In this document: positions 1-7,690 of the stretch, one piece after another
How the letters are laid out: each line of letters begins with the position of its first letter
Position numbering within the stretch: the first letter of the stretch is position 1
UHGV virus genome: UHGV-1544975
Strand: one strand, 5' to 3'
From: a virus
DNA: 31,654 nucleotides
Position numbers and translations under genes: made by a program
Notes under the pieces: generated by a model
Databases searched by the model: none
Told to the model about the DNA's origin: nothing
What the model saw: the letters and a program-made list of their open reading frames with translations, nothing else

Positions 1-2
1 TT

Positions 3-119
3 CATTATGCAAAAAATGATAATGAAATTGTCATTGTTGGATTTTCAAGAGAACACATACCTTTCCTTTCATCAGATGGAAACAACAATCCGCTTTTTAA
101 TGATGAAGAAGAAGAATAA
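3..119 (+). CDS. C-terminal fragment of an unidentified protein entering from the left edge (ends ...NDEEEE)
   Basis: Open frame from window start to TAA at 117..119, followed directly by a hairpin plus T-tract. Confidence 0.2.
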   Translation, partial: HYAKNDNEIVIVGFSREHIPFLSSDGNNNPLFNDEEEE

Positions 120-140
120 GCCCGCGCTGCGGGCTTTTTT
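120..140 (+). terminator. Rho-independent terminator (GCCCGC-gct-GCGGGC then TTTTTT)
   Basis: GC stem followed by a 6-T run immediately after the stop at 119. Confidence 0.5.
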
Positions 141-171
141 GTGGACGAAACAAAAGTCAGTGCTACACTCA

Positions 172-199
172 TTGACGCCACATTGAGGTGGCTTATAGA
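172..199 (+). promoter_or_regulatory. Possible sigma70-like promoter (TTGACG, 16-nt spacer, TATAGA)
   Basis: Hexamers read directly; the leader to the ATG at 213 would be very short, which weakens the call. Confidence 0.3.
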
Positions 200-212
200 T
201 GGAAATTTCACA

Positions 213-374
213 ATGAAAAAAGCATTTGCTGCACTGTTCGTTTTGTTGTCTCTGGTAGCTTCAACTCAGGCCTTTGCCGGTCGTTGTCAGCACGACAGCG
301 ATACTGCCGCTGACGGCTCCCGCTGCGGTGGGCGTTCTGCGGATTCCCGCCCGGGCGGCGGTGGCATTCGTTAA
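213..374 (+). CDS. Small secreted protein (53 aa) with N-terminal signal peptide
   Basis: Internal ATG of track ORF 141..374; MKKAFAALFVLLSLVASTQAFA is a signal-peptide-like N-terminus with an AxA site; Gly/Cys-rich mature part. Confidence 0.4.
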   Translation: MKKAFAALFVLLSLVASTQAFAGRCQHDSDTAADGSRCGGRSADSRPGGGGIR

Positions 375-396
375 AAACAAGGCCGCGAAAGCGGCC
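369..396 (-). terminator. Terminator at the end of the late operon (GGCCGC-GAAA-GCGGCC; U-tract on the minus strand)
   Basis: 6-bp GC stem with tetraloop; reverse complement is followed by TTGTTTTT; lies between convergent genes. Confidence 0.5.
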
Positions 397-397
397 T

Positions 398-409
398 GTG
401 ACATGTCAC
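398..409. repeat. 12-bp perfect palindrome GTGACATGTCAC, copy 1 of 3
   Basis: Exact match to copies at 17880..17891 and 20145..20156; overlaps the stop codon of 406..702. Confidence 0.8.
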
Positions 410-702
410 GCTCTTTTTCTGAATGATAGCCATTCGAAAAATGATGACATTCCACCGCAGACAATAGCAAAGATGATCCCACCAAAGAAGAGAAGGCCAG
501 CCTGCCACCACTCCCACCGCCATACATCCACAGCGCCAACCATACCAACAATAGCTCCAACAAATGGAATATAGCTCACGATGAAAGCAATGGGGGCTGC
601 AATTATCCAGTGCAATCCCCACCATGATTCAAGCCCAGCCATAATTGCTGCCAACTGAAAAAGACCAACGACGATATAAACAATGAATCCTATAGCTTGC
701 AT
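406..702 (-). CDS. Small membrane protein, about 3 predicted TM helices (holin-like or exclusion/conversion protein; function unknown)
   Basis: 98 aa, three long hydrophobic segments, AGGTGA RBS; last gene of the late operon. Confidence 0.55.
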   Translation of the reverse strand: MQAIGFIVYIVVGLFQLAAIMAGLESWWGLHWIIAAPIAFIVSYIPFVGAIVGMVGAVDVWRWEWWQAGLLFFGGIIFAIVCGGMSSFFEWLSFRKRA

Positions 703-714
703 GTAGTCACCTAT

Positions 715-888
715 TTACCCAGTAAAAATCAGAGGCCTCCCCTCAATAAGGCTTGCAACAAGAACTATTCCCTGCACAACAAAGATGAACCAGCAAATAG
801 CTTGAGTCTGAGGGTTAAGAAAATATTTGTAGCGGTCAATAAATAACAACCCACCAAAAATTATCACACTCAAAATAATTAAAAACAC
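715..888 (-). CDS. Small hydrophobic protein (57 aa, GTG start), two predicted TM segments
   Basis: Hand-translated; below the ORF-track size cutoff; AAGGAAG RBS overlapping the upstream stop; fills the gap between 898..3372 and 406..702. Confidence 0.35.
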   Translation of the reverse strand: MFLIILSVIIFGGLLFIDRYKYFLNPQTQAICWFIFVVQGIVLVASLIEGRPLIFTG

Positions 889-897
889 AACACTTCC

Positions 898-3372
898 TTA
901 TTGCGGAGTGACATCCTGAGGTCGCCACCAGTATGTCTGGTTAAACTCTTTCTTCGAACGTTGCTCCATTTTACGCAAATAGCCTGGTGAAAAATACTCC
1001 TGCATCTGGTTAAAAATCATGTGATCGAGAGCCGCCTTCAAGTACCAGAGATTCGCACCTGGCATCAAACCTTTCCCCAGCTTCACCAGATCACCACCAG
1101 TCTGCTCACTCTTCCCTTCCACAGCATTTAACGGTATGCCCTGAGCAATCTTCACTACGTCATCAACCAGACCAGCTACCGGGCCAAGCATCGACGCCAG
1201 CGCGCCGCTTCCGTACCTAGTGTGATCTGACAATAAAAAGTCACCGTAAAGGCCAAGACCACCACCTTTCAGTAGAGCACCAAGCCAAAATTTAGCAGCA
1301 TCTTCTCCTGTCATCTCGCGAGGATTACGACCAGACGCAAGGTCGTTAAGTTGCTGCGACAAAGCGCCAAGAATGGTCGTACTGGCAATAAACGTCGCAA
1401 TATATGCCGCACGCCCACCAGCAGACGGCATACCCATAGCGCGTGACCAGTGACGCATAACCACCGAGATAGGGAACGATTTAAACAGGAAAACACTTCT
1501 CGTTAATTCACCTTTCCATGTTCCACGCTGAATACCAGAACCGGTTATCAGTTGCTCACGTGCTCCTGGTGTAATAACAGCCATATCAACTTCTTCAGTT
1601 ACGGCACCGAGCAGTTTACGCATTGCCTCAAATTTCACGCGTTCAGGCTCACCAAGATGTTTAACTGCTGAATCAGGGATACGCATAATGCTTTCCGGTG
1701 TCAGCATCGTATTATTACCGTTCCCCCAGTCCTCCTGTTGCGCCAGCTTCCATACGCTCCAGTCTGTGTCAGTAATCCCTTTGCTTTTCAGGATACGAAA
1801 ATCAGAGTCATCGAGGCTACGAAGGTCTGGTGTCCGTGACACTACTTCTCCCAGGCTTCCCATCATGGTTACGCCATAGGCGCGCTTGTGCGCATCTGAC
1901 CATGCTGTAAGCCCACTGGCACGCATTACCGCCGTTGCCGCCCAACGAGACACTGACGGCCCCATATTATCCATCGCCCAGCGGTTAACGCTGCCAAGTA
2001 GAGATTCCATCGCCAGACCAGCGCGGCGCGCCCGCGCAAGTTCTGTACGGTTCGTTGGGTCCATAGCTTCAAGCTGGTTGCGGAATAACTGGTTCATTGG
2101 AAGGTTGGTCACCTTCGCAGACAGATACATGGTTCCAAGATCAGAGAACGATGATAGCAACGCAGATCCGAGTCTGCTGGCAACCAGCCAGTTGCGGATA
2201 TTGTCAGACCATCGCGCGATGTGCGGATTCGCTACAGGCTGTGTCTTTCCGGAAATAAAGTTGTACAGATTCTCTGTGTTGTTCGCCAGCCGCTCGACTT
2301 TACCGGTTTTACTCGGGTTAGCTGTTGCCGTTTCTGCCTTCACCTGATCAAGAAGAGAGCGGAAAACATGATCGGGGTTTGGGCCATATGTTTCCACCAG
2401 TGCAATATCTTTACTGATACCTTCCAGGTGACCGACCATGATTTCCCATAGAGAGCGATCGCCATAAAGTTGCTGATATTGCAGATAGGAATCTGCATCT
2501 TTGAAATGTATCTGTCGTGATGCATTACCACGGTTAGCACGTGCGCCGGAAATTCGCATTCCGGTATCAGTAAGCTTATTCAGCCCACCAGTAGCGATCG
2601 TGTTATAAGCCTCTCCAAGAAATGCAGACAACTCGGCATCGTTCATCAGTTGTCCATCGGCTCGGATATAATATTTGCGATCCAGCTTACCTATAACATC
2701 GCTAACCCACTTATCCTTTGATACCGCCCCAACCTTTTCCATAGAATGATGTTGAGGGAACCCCCAGTTTTCGAGATAGCCAATGTCCCCACCAGCATCA
2801 TTAAACCGGCGGCGCAGTAGATCTGTCACTTCTCTCCACGCCTTAGCACCTTTTCTTGCTTTAGCATTGCCAGTATTTTGCCCTCGCATTTCATATACCA
2901 GGTCACGTACGCCCGCTTCATCTTCAAACAGACCAAAAAAGCGAGGATCAACTGCTTCGAATGCCTCCTGCAATTGACTCAATGCATAATCACGAGTGGC
3001 TTTTGTTCTGGACTCAACAGAGAGGAAATTCGATTTACCGTCTGCATTAAAAGCAATAGTACGGTTAAGAGCGCCAAGTTTCCCATCAGCCCCTTGATAG
3101 CTATTGATAAATTTATCCAATCTCTGACGTGCGGCTATAGTGAGGGCCACACGACGTTTCTTTAATGCCGCTTCTCGCTGTAATTCTTCAGATGCCAATT
3201 GTGCTGCACGATATAGCCGCTCTGATTCGGAAAGTTGTCTCCACGACATCGGGTCATCACGAGCAATGGAGCGCATATTTCGATAAATGCGGTCTTCAAT
3301 GCTCTGTATTTCTCGCGCCGTTAACGTGCGCTGCGCCGCCTGCTGGACCGCTTGTATACATTCCTGTCTCAT
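898..3372 (-). CDS. Large internal virion / ejection protein (824 aa)
   Basis: Size and position at the distal end of the virion module; hydrophobic segments typical of ejection proteins; no specific family recognised. Confidence 0.45.
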   Translation of the reverse strand: MRQECIQAVQQAAQRTLTAREIQSIEDRIYRNMRSIARDDPMSWRQLSESERLYRAAQLASEELQREAALKKRRVALTIAARQRLDKFINSYQGADGKLGALNRTIAFNADGKSNFLSVESRTKATRDYALSQLQEAFEAVDPRFFGLFEDEAGVRDLVYEMRGQNTGNAKARKGAKAWREVTDLLRRRFNDAGGDIGYLENWGFPQHHSMEKVGAVSKDKWVSDVIGKLDRKYYIRADGQLMNDAELSAFLGEAYNTIATGGLNKLTDTGMRISGARANRGNASRQIHFKDADSYLQYQQLYGDRSLWEIMVGHLEGISKDIALVETYGPNPDHVFRSLLDQVKAETATANPSKTGKVERLANNTENLYNFISGKTQPVANPHIARWSDNIRNWLVASRLGSALLSSFSDLGTMYLSAKVTNLPMNQLFRNQLEAMDPTNRTELARARRAGLAMESLLGSVNRWAMDNMGPSVSRWAATAVMRASGLTAWSDAHKRAYGVTMMGSLGEVVSRTPDLRSLDDSDFRILKSKGITDTDWSVWKLAQQEDWGNGNNTMLTPESIMRIPDSAVKHLGEPERVKFEAMRKLLGAVTEEVDMAVITPGAREQLITGSGIQRGTWKGELTRSVFLFKSFPISVVMRHWSRAMGMPSAGGRAAYIATFIASTTILGALSQQLNDLASGRNPREMTGEDAAKFWLGALLKGGGLGLYGDFLLSDHTRYGSGALASMLGPVAGLVDDVVKIAQGIPLNAVEGKSEQTGGDLVKLGKGLMPGANLWYLKAALDHMIFNQMQEYFSPGYLRKMEQRSKKEFNQTYWWRPQDVTPQ

Positions 3373-3377
3373 TTAAT

Positions 3378-5180
3378 TTAACCTCTCAAGAAACACGCCA
3401 CAGCGACATCAAACAGGCTGGAATCCTGTATTGCCTGCTCACTTTCCCTGTTCGCTTCATCCAGTACTTCACGCGCACTGCGCGATTGTGGATTACCATC
3501 ATCATCCAGCACGGTGATTATCATGTCCGGAGATTCAAGCAGCGAGTCTTCAGCTATACGCAGATCAATATCTCCTGCCGGATCTGCCATCATTTTTTGT
3601 TCTGTCTGTTGCAATATCTTACCGGGCTCAAAAGGAGCTACTTCGTCTGGCGTCCTGACCTCTGCTGTTTTATAGAATGAAACAGCCTGAGCATTAAGTT
3701 CACTTTCTGCCTGCTGTCGTCGTGCCAGTTCTGCTCGAGCTTCAAAAAACTGACCTCCAGGCTCGTGCGGCGCCAACGCGTTACGAGAAAATTCCAGGCG
3801 TTCTTGTGCCTGCCGGATTCGTTGGTCAATATCGCGAAGTCTGGCCTGTTTATCTGATCGAGCACGAGATAAAGCCTTACCGCTACCGGTTGGCTCTTCT
3901 GCAAGAATTTGTGCGCGCTGTTCAGTGAGATTTTCAATAATTCGTTGGCTATTAGCGATTTCAGACTGGTAAACCTGTCTATCGCCACGCGACAAAAGCT
4001 GCGCGGCCTGTTCTTCAAGCAACCGATTTTCTATAGCGCGCGCCGTTACTCCATCATCTACAGATGACAGAGCCTCATTAACTGCCTGAGACAGCAGACT
4101 CTTGCGCCCAGGAATTTCACTGAAAGATGCAGACTCAACAATGCTGGCAACGTCTACAGGTCTCCCCTGGCTAACATCAGACATGGCTTTTCGCAGAGCC
4201 TGAATGTGCGAATTACGCGAAAGCACGTTGATCGGAACGCCGGGAGCAATATCAATTTCAGCATGATGAGCGGCATTCGCCGCCAGTGCAGCATCAATAT
4301 CAACTGGTGAAAAATTTGGTGTGCTTGTAGACTCGCCGCGAGAGTTAATAAATCTGCCGACACCACCAAACGCCACCCCAAGAACAGCATCAATAGCAAT
4401 TGCCTGTCGATCCAACACATCATACTGGTTAGCCATTTCGCTATAGCCACCATCACGAAGCGTTTTTGCAGTAAGCCCACGCTGTGCCATACCGAACGCA
4501 ATATTTGTACCTGCGGCATAGGCAATATCTGGCGTTGCACGTACTGCTGTTGCTGCGGCGCGTCGCACTGAACTTTCACCCGTCCGCGCAAGCTGAGCCG
4601 CCACACCTTCCGCCAGCGCACCACCAGCACGTAACCCGAGGCTCATAGGGATCAGTGTTCCGGCACCAGCAGTAATACCCTGCACTAATCCCGCTTCCTG
4701 CGCCGTCCTGAAATCAACACCCTGTGCTGTCAACCGTTCAAACTCAGAAAAACCCTGTAGAGAAGTTACCGCCGCAGCACCTCCGACCGGACCACCGAGC
4801 GTTGTACCGACAACAGCCTGCCCGCCCATATCGAACAACCCATAAAGGACCTGCCCGGCGGTTCCGGTTGTCGCGGCATCAGGCGTCAGCCGCTTAACCT
4901 GCTGCTCTGCTAGTTTTCTCTGCTCAGCAATGTATGAAACTGAAGTGTCATTGAGCGAGGTGTTTTCGTTAACAAGCTGAGCAATCGGTGATACGATTTT
5001 ATCCATCCCTGCCCATAGCAACTGATCTGGCTTTGCCACCAGCCCGGAGTACAAACCAGACAATGCCGCTCCTACAGCATTGTCGAAAAAACCAACATCG
5101 CTGTTAAAGCCAACTGGATTTGATGCTGCTTCGTCAAGCTGCTGATTCTGGTTTACTGGATTAAGGCCAAAGTAACTCAT
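3378..5180 (-). CDS. Internal virion protein (600 aa), Ala/Gly-rich with a coiled-coil C-terminal part
   Basis: Position between two other large virion proteins; 4-nt overlap with the upstream gene. Confidence 0.45.
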   Translation of the reverse strand: MSYFGLNPVNQNQQLDEAASNPVGFNSDVGFFDNAVGAALSGLYSGLVAKPDQLLWAGMDKIVSPIAQLVNENTSLNDTSVSYIAEQRKLAEQQVKRLTPDAATTGTAGQVLYGLFDMGGQAVVGTTLGGPVGGAAAVTSLQGFSEFERLTAQGVDFRTAQEAGLVQGITAGAGTLIPMSLGLRAGGALAEGVAAQLARTGESSVRRAAATAVRATPDIAYAAGTNIAFGMAQRGLTAKTLRDGGYSEMANQYDVLDRQAIAIDAVLGVAFGGVGRFINSRGESTSTPNFSPVDIDAALAANAAHHAEIDIAPGVPINVLSRNSHIQALRKAMSDVSQGRPVDVASIVESASFSEIPGRKSLLSQAVNEALSSVDDGVTARAIENRLLEEQAAQLLSRGDRQVYQSEIANSQRIIENLTEQRAQILAEEPTGSGKALSRARSDKQARLRDIDQRIRQAQERLEFSRNALAPHEPGGQFFEARAELARRQQAESELNAQAVSFYKTAEVRTPDEVAPFEPGKILQQTEQKMMADPAGDIDLRIAEDSLLESPDMIITVLDDDGNPQSRSAREVLDEANRESEQAIQDSSLFDVAVACFLRG

Positions 5181-7690
5181 TGCGGAATATCTCCGGAGAA
5201 TCTCTGACGCTTCTGTGTCAGATCAAGAACAACGGGAGAACCATCATCTTTTAGCAGATAACCAGTACCAAGTTTCACCAGGTACTGACTATCGCCGTAA
5301 CTTTGCAAACCATACTGACCAGGCGGTGTTTTTATCCCTGTGCCAACAACTTGTTCATTCCAAGCCTGATTAACCTGCTTATCGAATTGCTCTGCAGACA
5401 TTCCCCACGGCAAAAGAACATTCCCCATTCCGTTATAGTCATGCACGCCACCTGTAGCTACGTTAACAGCCTGTTTCCAGATATCATTGTCAATTTCGCC
5501 TGATACCACGCCTTTTTTCGCCATCACACCAGCGTAATAGTCCTTTGCGATCTCGTATGCCATTGATGCCCCCTGAGCATCACCAGCAAATGCATCCTTC
5601 ACCATGTCAGAAAACTCAAGGCGAAGATCAGCATCTTTAGGCATCGGAATACCTTTCGCGTCATCAGTACCTTTACGAGCCGCCGCGCCAGCAAGAATTG
5701 TCTGCGCAGCGGTTTCTGGAGACACGGAAACATCCGGATTAAACCAGTTTTTTTCTGCCAAAATACCACCTGGCTTATCCATCAGTATCCCGGCAACGGC
5801 AGCAGATGGAGCGTTGGCACTGATCTGCTGTAGTGCTGACATATACACCTGCCCACCACCAGTGCTCTGCCTGATGGTATCGAGATATGCTGCCTGTTGG
5901 GAAACGGGCGCATCACGAAAGAAAACACCGATCTGATTGGCCTCGTCTTTGGAAAAGAACGTCAGTGGAGTGCCATATGACTTAGCAAGGTCACTGACCT
6001 GAGCAGCACGCAAGGCAACGCTCTGTCCAAAGTTATCCTTATTGCTCATGTCGATAGGCTTTGCCTGTCCGGCGGCAAGAGAGAACTGTACAGGATCAGC
6101 CTGTCGCTGCTTTATCACCTGACTTGCAGCCGACACAACGTTGTCATAAAGAGCGGCTCGTGCCGCATAACCCTCCCCTGTCTCACCAGTATCCGGGCGT
6201 AATTGCTCAACATATGCTGTAATGCTGCTTGTCGGCATGTTGCGGAAAGAGCCTATATACTGTCCGGCGATTTGCGTATTTCTGAACTCGGTATATCGCA
6301 GGTTTCCTTCTCTTACTCCATAAGCTGCAATAAAATCAGCCTCACCAGGTGGGTTAGGAAATTCAACGCCACGCATATACGCAGCTGTCGCATCGCGAAC
6401 CTGGCTGTCAATCATCGTTTTATATTCAGCCTGCTGCTGCCGACGCAGTTGATCCGCCTGTCGCATAAAACTTGCCTGCGCCTCAGGAGATGCCGCATCG
6501 AATGCTGCATTACCGGTATAGCGTTTGGTGTTGGTTGGAATTGTTGATAAACCAAGTGCTGCACTGACACCAGCAGTTAACTGCTGATCACTGTATGGCT
6601 GGCTACCGTTCTCATGATGGATAATGGCTGCACAAAGCGCCTTCAGGGTATCAGGATTAGATGCATCGAGAGGCTCATCAGCAGAAACGCCAAGTTGTTC
6701 GCACACTGCTTTGATATACGACATAGTGTCATTTTTATCAGCAGGCGGTGCCCAGCGATTAATTATCTCGCTGACGGTATCAATACCCTGCCTCTGATAC
6801 GACATCAGGTTCCGCCCTAATGCACGAATCCCGTGTTCAGGTGTTTCGAATTTAGCAAATCGACCATCATCACCGGTCTGGCCTACCCACGGATTAGTTT
6901 TGCTGTATTCGAGATTTCCTGGGTTATTGTTGCGTATGCCACGGGCACGCTCGGAAGAGTCACTATCTGCTACAGCACGGCGAGCTCCAGCAGCAGTATC
7001 ACTTAACTCGCCATTACTTTGGATGAATGCGGTCGCATTGTTTGCCGACCACTGGGACAATGCAGCATCAGCAACCTTCTCTTTAAACTCGATTTTCTTG
7101 GCCTGGATTTGCTCGTTGCTCCAGCCATGTGCAACACCGTACTCCTCAATTTGCTGGAAAGTTTGCTTGTTAGCCAATACGTATGCGGCGTTGTCGCCAT
7201 ACAATGCTGCGGCATTTTTACCATTGTTCAGCAGTGTCGCCTGAAACTGGCCTTCTTCGTAGGCATTAATTTGCCCTATCTCGTGTCGCCCGGCCTGCGT
7301 AGTGAACTGAATGCGCTGCTGCTGCGCCTGCTGCATGAAAGCATTACGAGCCTGTTCATCCGGCAGCGACATAGCCAGTTGTTCGACCTGAGCATCAAAC
7401 TGCTGCGTATACTCATGGCCTTTTCCAATAGCATTTTTCCCTTTCAGGTTAAGCAATCCTGTTTCAGGATTATTCAGCAGATCGCTGCTTATCTGACTGA
7501 GGTTAAGAGATGCCTCCTGAGCCAGAGCGATATTGGCACGCTGTTTTGCCTGCCCCAAAACATCAATTGCCTCTGTCCCTGCCCGAACAAAAGCATCACC
7601 AATACCTTGCTGAGAAAACGTCTGCAAGCCTGCTGACTGAACTCCACGACTCTCAACCTGACGTCCGGATACTGTTGGTACGACTGGCAT
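5177..7690 (-). CDS. Internal virion protein (about 837 aa) with a possible cell-wall hydrolase segment
   Basis: Likely start at the internal ATG 7688..7690 (GGAGG RBS, overlaps the upstream stop) rather than track start 7765; conserved-looking segment GIRNNNPGNLEY... Confidence 0.45.
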   Translation of the reverse strand: MPVVPTVSGRQVESRGVQSAGLQTFSQQGIGDAFVRAGTEAIDVLGQAKQRANIALAQEASLNLSQISSDLLNNPETGLLNLKGKNAIGKGHEYTQQFDAQVEQLAMSLPDEQARNAFMQQAQQQRIQFTTQAGRHEIGQINAYEEGQFQATLLNNGKNAAALYGDNAAYVLANKQTFQQIEEYGVAHGWSNEQIQAKKIEFKEKVADAALSQWSANNATAFIQSNGELSDTAAGARRAVADSDSSERARGIRNNNPGNLEYSKTNPWVGQTGDDGRFAKFETPEHGIRALGRNLMSYQRQGIDTVSEIINRWAPPADKNDTMSYIKAVCEQLGVSADEPLDASNPDTLKALCAAIIHHENGSQPYSDQQLTAGVSAALGLSTIPTNTKRYTGNAAFDAASPEAQASFMRQADQLRRQQQAEYKTMIDSQVRDATAAYMRGVEFPNPPGEADFIAAYGVREGNLRYTEFRNTQIAGQYIGSFRNMPTSSITAYVEQLRPDTGETGEGYAARAALYDNVVSAASQVIKQRQADPVQFSLAAGQAKPIDMSNKDNFGQSVALRAAQVSDLAKSYGTPLTFFSKDEANQIGVFFRDAPVSQQAAYLDTIRQSTGGGQVYMSALQQISANAPSAAVAGILMDKPGGILAEKNWFNPDVSVSPETAAQTILAGAAARKGTDDAKGIPMPKDADLRLEFSDMVKDAFAGDAQGASMAYEIAKDYYAGVMAKKGVVSGEIDNDIWKQAVNVATGGVHDYNGMGNVLLPWGMSAEQFDKQVNQAWNEQVVGTGIKTPPGQYGLQSYGDSQYLVKLGTGYLLKDDGSPVVLDLTQKRQRFSGDIPQ

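Follow-up and report, generated by a model that had tools for sequence, protein, structure and literature searches.

Phage morons, a concept due to Hendrix, Juhala and colleagues, are autonomous accessory transcription units such as bor and lom of phage lambda. The immI region of Salmonella phage P22 (mnt-arc-ant, with sieA nearby) is an accessory block with an antirepressor, flanked by the ejection protein genes on one side and the tailspike gene on the other. T4 Spackle and T5 Llp are small periplasmic or lipoprotein superinfection-exclusion factors. Here we describe bases 1–409 of the virus genome UHGV-1544975, a stretch of 31,654 nucleotides (nt) that we refer to as the window. These bases hold the end of a plus-strand gene encoding a protein of 147 amino acids (aa) and a complete plus-strand gene encoding a protein of 53 aa. 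Taken as a whole, the region probably consists of two independent cargo units in the accessory block of a Uetakevirus prophage, the end of a toxin-like gene and a secreted-peptide moron. This kind of feature is ordinary and the novelty is modest; it lies in two uncharacterised families, a terminator-bounded cargo slot and a virulence phenotype that has likely been misassigned.

The DNA of the window belongs to a Uetakevirus (phiV10/epsilon15-like) prophage that E. coli ECSC054 carries at the 3' end of guaA. Bases 1–1000 are 100% identical to the chromosome of this strain, and bases 1–3400 share 98.6–98.7% identity with the deposited complete genomes of phages phiv142-3 and HEMP4 (genus Uetakevirus, phiV10/epsilon15 group). 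On the right, the window ends at the start of the integrase gene, a neighbour of guaA. An earlier note on this DNA, made from the sequence alone, had advised looking for attachment (att) repeats beyond the integrase. A 17-base pair (bp) direct repeat, ATTGAGTGGGAATGATT, is found there, with one copy at the guaA 3' end just beyond the integrase and the other between yfgI and the lysis genes, 6.5 kb to the left of the window. The repeat is identical to the published attP/attB of phiV10, epsilon15 and ZX5 (PMC9782041). Given the att repeats at guaA and beside yfgI, the prophage therefore measures approximately 38.4 kb, with window base 1 about 6.5 kb from its left end.

The earlier note had also considered that the left end of the window might be the prophage boundary, with the two plus-strand genes belonging to host DNA. 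Only the change of strand and the separate terminators speak for an edge at this position. In ECSC054, phage DNA extends a further ~6.5 kb leftwards of base 1. The remainder of the 147-aa gene is followed in that direction by a 55-aa gene, a BRO-N antirepressor gene and an 85-aa gene, and further left by an oppositely oriented tailspike gene, two holin-like genes, an endolysin gene, a gene for a DUF2514 protein, and then host yfgI. Neither an attachment core nor host genes beyond it are present at the left window end, the att repeats are located elsewhere, and the same sequence is found in the complete genomes of phiv142-3 and HEMP4. The boundary is thus refuted, and we give it a virtually nil chance of being correct. 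Bases 1–409 are the distal end of a plus-strand accessory block flanked by the tailspike gene and the internal virion protein operon. This settles the map. The window begins inside the prophage, in a cargo hotspot, and the flanking genes are therefore to be read as phage accessory genes, not host genes.

The features of the region are given below in window coordinates; those marked L002 refer to a 25-kb locus.

3–119, plus strand: last 38 codons of the 147-aa gene, encoding HYAKNDNEIVIVGFSREHIPFLSSDGNNNPLFNDEEEE, and its stop codon (TAA, 117–119); the whole gene is at L002 11676–12119.
118–141, plus strand: intrinsic terminator, hairpin AAGCCCGCGCTGCGGGCTT at 118–136 and then six T residues; 8-bp stem with 6 G-C pairs, 3-nt loop.
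142–169, plus strand: best-supported promoter candidate by conservation, TGGACG (142–147), 16-nt spacer, TACACT (164–169).
172–199, plus strand: TTGACG (172–177), 16-nt spacer, TATAGA (194–199); present, not conserved, overlaps the conserved hairpin.
177–192, plus strand: conserved hairpin GCCAC-ATTGAG-GTGGC with covariation, starting 8 nt after TACACT.
213–374, plus strand: 53-aa gene (phrog_14503), ATG at 213, stop codon at 372–374.
213–278, plus strand: predicted signal peptide, residues 1–22, with predicted cleavage after AFA.
279–371, plus strand: predicted mature peptide, residues 23–53, GRCQHDSDTAADGSRCGGRSADSRPGGGGIR, with invariant C25 and C38.
352–361, plus strand: CGGGCGGCGG, one copy of a 10-bp direct repeat; the other is 957 bp upstream, just past the antirepressor stop (L002 11395–11404).
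380–397, no strand assigned: bidirectional terminator hairpin AGGCCGCGAAAGCGGCCT (AGGCCGC-GAAA-GCGGCCT), called by the scan on the minus strand with tail TGTTTTTAAC.
398–409, no strand assigned: perfect 12-bp palindrome GTGACATGTCAC, overlapping the stop codon of the 98-aa gene and kept in Klebsiella and Cronobacter loci.
406–702, minus strand: 98-aa membrane protein gene (phrog_3075), with which the convergent minus-strand operon ends.

The two plus-strand genes are cargo that differs between closely related phages. phiV10 matches the window solely from base 352 onwards. The 10-mer CGGGCGGCGG occurs twice only in the 25-kb locus, and phiV10 keeps one copy, at the junction; what separates the two phages is therefore an indel of 957 bp with a short direct repeat at its ends. 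It contains the genes for the 55-aa and 147-aa proteins, the terminator, the promoter region and the greater part of the 53-aa gene. The 53-aa moron-type gene is patchy among close relatives while lying inside the phage, being present in phiv142-3, HEMP4, TL-2011b and BUCT711 and absent from phiV10. It also has flanking terminators of its own, the hairpin and T-run at 118–141 upstream and the bidirectional hairpin at 380–397 downstream. The suggestion, made beforehand, that these genes could be phage morons is supported by the variability of the accessory block, the absence of the stretch with both genes from phiV10, and an upstream gene that changes between prophages.

This last point emerged from a survey of 5426 complete E. 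coli genomes. Some part of 1–409 is matched in 532 of them, and the small-gene cassette (at least 80% of 141–409) is present in 422, or ~8%. Only 60 genomes match at least 80% of the whole 1–409, where the cassette adjoins the 3' part of the 147-aa gene. When the 535 matching E. coli records were sampled at even intervals, the majority of the matches started at 108–135, which is the position of the terminator hairpin. In four other sampled prophages the slot upstream of the terminator holds a YafO-family toxin (two cases, one of which also has a small upstream ORF (open reading frame)), a DUF2335 membrane protein (one) or a DUF4760 protein (one), and the 53-aa protein in all four is the identical sequence WP_000708858.1. 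A fixed start at the terminator together with differing upstream genes indicates two separable units, so we distinguish a variable slot from a conserved cassette to its right. Base composition agrees with this split, with a G+C content of 31–41% in the 147-aa gene and of approximately 57–61% in the stretch with most of the small gene and its terminator. PADLOC found no match for the alternative slot occupants, so a known defence system is unsupported as a reading of the slot. The result is a variable slot in Uetakevirus prophages in which genes for toxin-like and membrane proteins are exchanged, with the terminator as the fixed boundary.

The cassette also occurs elsewhere. In E. coli 13E0780 it lies beside a P22-like Arc/antirepressor block (L071 3103–5100), and in Pectobacterium (L009 5001–5168) it is found in a different phage type, beside a 1366-aa protein with a MuF_C domain. 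The cassette therefore moves between phage lineages. In the accessory block itself, the 85-aa gene (L002 10106–10363) is a paralogue of the C-terminal domain of the BRO-N antirepressor (L002 10684–11394); both match phrog_450 and phrog_15539, and the 85-aa protein may modulate the antirepressor.

The terminator that had been placed at 120–140, after the cut reading frame ending at 119, was confirmed as a hairpin with a T-run at 118–141, and the reading frame itself runs from 3 to the expected stop. The hairpin has a predicted free energy of -14.1 kcal/mol (z = -2.3), is called by the terminator scan and is kept in Klebsiella loci. The scan called six terminator-like sites in 2 kb compared with 1.8 ± 0.9 in shuffled sequences. 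Judging from where most matches start, the terminator is also the recombination boundary that separates the variable slot from the conserved small-gene cassette. Matches to the Rfam Trp and Phe leaders at 32–142 were rejected as chance (~25.6 bits compared with gathering scores of 41 and 55); they arise because of the terminator hairpin.

At the other end of the cassette, the hairpin at 380–397 comes directly after the stop codon of the minus-strand 98-aa gene and is kept in Klebsiella and Cronobacter loci. It is flanked by an A-tract and a T-tract, one on each side, and a palindrome and T-run come after it. This hairpin can serve both converging transcripts, that of the small gene and that of the virion-protein operon. 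The minus-strand call agrees with the earlier description of the small gene as converging on a late operon terminator.

The 53-aa ORF is, from its pattern of codon changes, a real protein-coding gene under strong purifying selection, because synonymous far outnumber non-synonymous changes. Across a 25-codon core, comparison with homologues from Klebsiella, Cronobacter, Pectobacterium, Enterobacter, Rahnella, Rouxiella and Tolumonas gives 11–16 synonymous and 0–5 non-synonymous codon differences. The leader is variable and the mature part almost invariant. In 64 aligned sequences C25, A32, G35, S36, R37, C38, G39, R41, R46, G48 and G49 never vary, and D30 and D34 hardly do. A longer form of the gene, starting at a GTG at 141 (77 aa, phrog_3117), was rejected, as this start comes right after the T-run, the sequence upstream of the ATG is not conserved as protein, and indels break the frame.

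The signal-peptide layout of this gene product, first noticed from the sequence, holds: MKK is followed by a 13-residue hydrophobic segment, AFAALFVLLSLVA, and by STQAFA|G, with small residues at -3 and -1. This n-h-c layout is kept in the 64 aligned members. Our best inference is that the precursor would be exported by Sec, cut by signal peptidase after Ala22 and freed into the periplasm as a 31-residue peptide with one disulfide, Cys25–Cys38. Such a peptide could be a lysogenic-conversion factor acting in the cell envelope.

Several observations count against this proposal. The protein has no significant match in Pfam, NCBIfam or PADLOC, with weak matches to HxsA3 and MarB falling far below cut-offs. 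Among 85 genes neighbouring the non-enterobacterial peptide genes, Pfam profiles revealed no recurrent partner, with Rap1a appearing twice among scattered mobile-element genes. In addition, homologues have been named 'transmembrane anchored protein' by NCBI and by phage annotators, and an AlphaFold2 (AF2) model of the 53-aa protein shows one helix over residues 2–21 and coil for the rest (predicted local distance difference test score, pLDDT, 75), too little structure to guide a fold search. Both the name and the helix would fit a product that stays in the membrane, where an uncleaved N-terminal signal anchor displays the 31-residue domain on the periplasmic face. We find this unlikely, since nearly all members have a canonical n-h-c structure in which positions -3 and -1 hold small residues (A-F-A or A-x-A), a variable hydrophobic part beside an invariant core is the pattern of a cleaved signal peptide, and cyanobacterial members carry a lipobox-like L-I-[VI]-T-S-C instead. 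A cleaved, periplasmic peptide is thus the preferred reading.

The peptide family is very widespread. A profile search found at least 1110 clusters of approximately 48–53 aa with the invariant core C..D.A.DGSRCG.R....R.GG, none of which has a Pfam domain, and a profile search of Protein Data Bank (PDB) sequences matched no solved structure. In a scan of one genome per species, the same core was found in Rhizobiales, cyanobacteria, Bacteriovorax, Vibrio and Polyangiaceae, almost always in a 45–60-aa precursor with a signal peptide or a lipobox-like leader. Within the Uetakevirus-type prophages of E. coli, Klebsiella and Cronobacter, the 53-aa gene invariably closes the plus-strand block, just ahead of the convergent terminator; in Cronobacter the accessory block has shrunk to the 85-aa gene and the 53-aa-type gene. 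The family is also found in other phage backgrounds. The phrog_14503 entry is in the category 'moron' and labelled 'membrane associated protein'. Literature searches on 'transmembrane anchored protein' with phage, or on the motif DGSRCG, found no paper in the library that was searched. The segment DSDTAADGSRCG bears what we take to be a resemblance to the DxDxDGxxCE motif of the Excalibur calcium-binding domain (PF05901), but Pfam gave no match to this domain at E ≤ 1 for the 53-aa protein. As a separate observation, genes for Rap1a, a type VI secretion system (T6SS) immunity protein, lie near the peptide gene in a Klebsiella prophage (L010 5711–6094) and in two non-enterobacterial genomes, which may be coincidence.

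How the small gene is transcribed was examined by aligning the 113 bases before the start codon and the first 12 coding bases from 18 loci of approximately 12 genera. T164 and A165 occur in every locus and T169 in 17 of the 18, defining a TAnnnT -10-like hexamer (TACACT here), and many of the aligned loci have TTG-type -35 elements 16–18 nt upstream of it. The hairpin at 177–192 starts 8 nt past this -10 hexamer, so it would lie at the predicted 5' end of the transcript. Its stem shows compensatory changes across genera (CCAC/GTGG, CCGC/GCGG and CTGC/GCAG), and RNAalifold finds changes on both sides of all four pairs, one of which is AU in 7, GC in 6 and GU in 2 sequences. The minimum free energy is -9.6 kcal/mol (z = -1.6). 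We propose from this conservation that a sigma-70 promoter with the -10 hexamer TACACT drives the small gene, with a transcript that would begin at about 175–177 and carry a 5' stem-loop, a weak GGA-type ribosome-binding site and the ATG. The transcript would be made by the lysogen and would end at the 380–397 hairpin, which it probably shares with the converging late operon.

This proposal also has evidence against it. The TGGACG/TACACT candidate agrees with the consensus at 8 of 12 positions and is not called by the promoter scan, and the 53-aa gene (orf11) is absent from the serum-induced genes given in the sole transcript study of this phage. The promoter-like element TTGACG-16-TATAGA, to which the earlier note had drawn attention, exists as described, but it is not conserved in related loci, where a different -10 hexamer 30 nt upstream is. 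It agrees with the consensus at 9 of 12 positions and is likewise uncalled, because its -10 hexamer ends in A, not T. As neither candidate passes the consensus scan, use of the conserved promoter is suggested by conservation.

The operator recognised by Arc at the P22 Pant promoter is an inverted repeat between the -35 and -10 elements. A comparable arrangement is conceivable here if TTGACG-16-TATAGA is the working promoter, with a start near 206 and with the inverted repeat in its spacer acting as a protein operator and not as an RNA hairpin. The -35 element is good, the consensus agreement is the higher of the two, and the space between -35 and -10 is a classical position for an operator. 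However, this -35 element is kept in no other genus, the supposed -10 hexamer reads TACACA in most relatives, without the final T, the element is rejected by the scan criteria, and a start near 206 leaves a leader of only ~7 nt. The compensatory stem changes, which are found in stand-alone cassettes of unrelated phages, fit RNA pairing better than co-evolution with a repressor. We therefore judge this arrangement improbable and prefer the promoter with TACACT and an RNA hairpin at the 5' end of the transcript.

The gene that is cut by the left window end encodes a protein assigned to phrog_5954 (annotated function unknown). A word-seeded search found 36 clusters of homologues, and an exhaustive hidden Markov model (HMM) search of 1.84 billion representatives found 119. 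His77, His79 and His127 are invariant even in distant relatives, and a G-x-N-K motif and two tyrosines are nearly invariant. The fragment in the window covers the last strands of the protein and includes the invariant Y111, S124, H127 and P129 and the near-invariant H110. The AF2 model of the whole protein has a pLDDT of 90.3, its fold neighbours are exclusively toxins, and the predicted fold is of the RelE/ParE class.

A small ORF related to the 55-aa protein is always directly upstream of the 147-aa gene, in four settings. These are this E. coli prophage (the 55-aa gene); the same position in a Pectobacterium Uetakevirus-like prophage; the nin region of lambdoid prophages in Klebsiella, in which the C-terminal part of a 102-aa ORF represents the partner; and the Vibrio filamentous phage 10N.261.55.B9_PE002 (Tubulavirales; L075 2333–2935), which has a 50-aa ORF and a homologue of the 147-aa protein at 42% identity. 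The partners are ORFs of 50–56 aa or the homologous C-terminus of the 102-aa ORF. Considering the mobile two-gene cassette, the RelE-like fold, the invariant histidines and a slot that elsewhere holds YafO, the best reading of the two proteins is a toxin-antitoxin-like pair, probably an RNase and its neutraliser. The product of the cut gene thus most resembles, by its model, a RelE/ParE-type toxin that lies outside every curated family.

Sequence comparisons argue in the other direction. The 147-aa protein has no Pfam or NCBIfam match at E ≤ 1 and no PADLOC match, and a Pfam scan of 51 distant relatives revealed neither a domain nor a bridge to a known family. Alignment of the family with the YafO toxins of the same slot using hhalign found no similarity (probability 0.2%), and the pairwise similarity among the partner proteins is weak (E 0.005–0.008). 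By sequence, the protein does not belong to a curated toxin family (such as PF13957 YafO_toxin or the ParE, YafQ and HigB models). Foldseek found nothing significant for its model among the BFVD viral structures, a profile search of PDB sequences with the family yielded chance matches only, and scans of the 55-aa protein against Pfam, NCBIfam and PADLOC found nothing significant.

A phenotype has been published for this locus. In the avian pathogenic E. coli (APEC) phage phiv142-3, orf10 is the second most serum-induced gene of the prophage (2^4.12-fold), and its deletion lowers serum survival, reduces kps capsule transcripts by approximately 2-fold and leads to fewer bacteria in chicken blood and heart, with normal growth in lysogeny broth (LB) (PMC7724020). 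The annotated orf10 (MN187550, 6498–6656) is an out-of-frame ORF within the 147-aa gene (6368–6808), so the phenotype most likely belongs to that gene. The printed knockout primer arms (PMC7724020) match codons ~24–43 and ~106–116 of the 147-aa gene, with the right arm overlapping window bases 1–22; the deletion therefore takes out the core of this conserved gene. The serum and capsule phenotype is most likely due to the RelE-fold protein or its transcript and not to the 52-aa 'orf10' product. This conclusion is our own, and is not considered in PMC7724020. It re-interprets a published virulence locus for serum resistance and capsule-gene expression.

The same deletion bears on whether the 147-aa protein is a toxin at all. 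A protein with the RelE fold could serve a different function, such as that of a regulator increasing the expression of capsule genes, and the 55-aa protein would then be a co-factor. Lower kps transcripts and serum survival with unchanged growth in LB (PMC7724020) would fit such a role, as would a protein that by sequence falls in no toxin family and is negative in PADLOC. The fold neighbours, on the other hand, are solely toxins, the histidines are invariant, the small upstream partner is kept across four element types, and YafO toxins occupy the same slot elsewhere. A role other than that of a toxin is consequently possible but rather doubtful, and we retain the toxin-antitoxin-like pair.

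A more far-reaching combination can be put forward tentatively, and we would sooner bet against it than for it. The 53-aa gene may belong to an unrecognised, phage-spread class of ultra-conserved periplasmic mini-proteins that bind a universal envelope component or a metal ion, and at the same time the 'orf10' phenotype may be due to a new family of RelE-fold toxins. The disulfide-bridged core of the proposed mini-protein would be approximately 25 residues (C-x4-D-x-A-x-DGSRCG-x-R-x4-R-x-GG) and extends from enterobacterial phages to Rhizobiales and cyanobacteria. If the combination is correct, the mini-protein would alter the surface physiology of the lysogen or its susceptibility to phages or toxins. 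A putatively secreted family of this breadth, with neither a Pfam model nor a solved structure, is flagged here.

On the minus strand, two small membrane-protein genes, at 406–702 and 715–888, end the virion-protein operon and occupy the position of sieA in P22. The 98-aa protein has a weak holin-like Pfam match (E 0.027). Its gene is apparently missing in phiV10, where the annotation has only a 46-aa membrane protein and the match to the window is split in two.

The toxin-like protein can be compared with the type II toxins of the RelE/ParE superfamily (YafQ, YoeB, RelE, HigB and YafO). It is approximately 55 residues longer, with an N-terminal extension, and differs from them further in having no Pfam or hhalign match. 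For the 53-aa product, T4 Spackle and T5 Llp offer an analogy only. All would be small products of a prophage or early gene that act in the envelope, and the product here is predicted to be Sec-exported. However, the peptide derived from the 53-aa precursor is much smaller than either and has no sequence or structural relation to them.

The closest resemblance is in arrangement. Like bor and lom of lambda, the small gene follows a terminator and a promoter candidate of its own, is followed by a second terminator, lies between conserved phage modules, is patchy among relatives and encodes a product predicted to be directed to the envelope. Unlike for bor and lom, the promoter is proposed here from conservation alone, and the peptide family is also common outside phages. 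Like P22 immI, the block contains an antirepressor and is located between internal virion protein genes and the tailspike gene, and E. coli 13E0780 has this small-gene cassette directly beside Arc and antirepressor genes. In contrast to immI, the block described here is transcribed towards the virion operon, its antirepressor is of the BRO-N type, and no homologue of Arc or Mnt was seen in the prophage. By analogy with these systems, the small gene is arranged like a classical phage moron in an accessory block at the immI position of P22.

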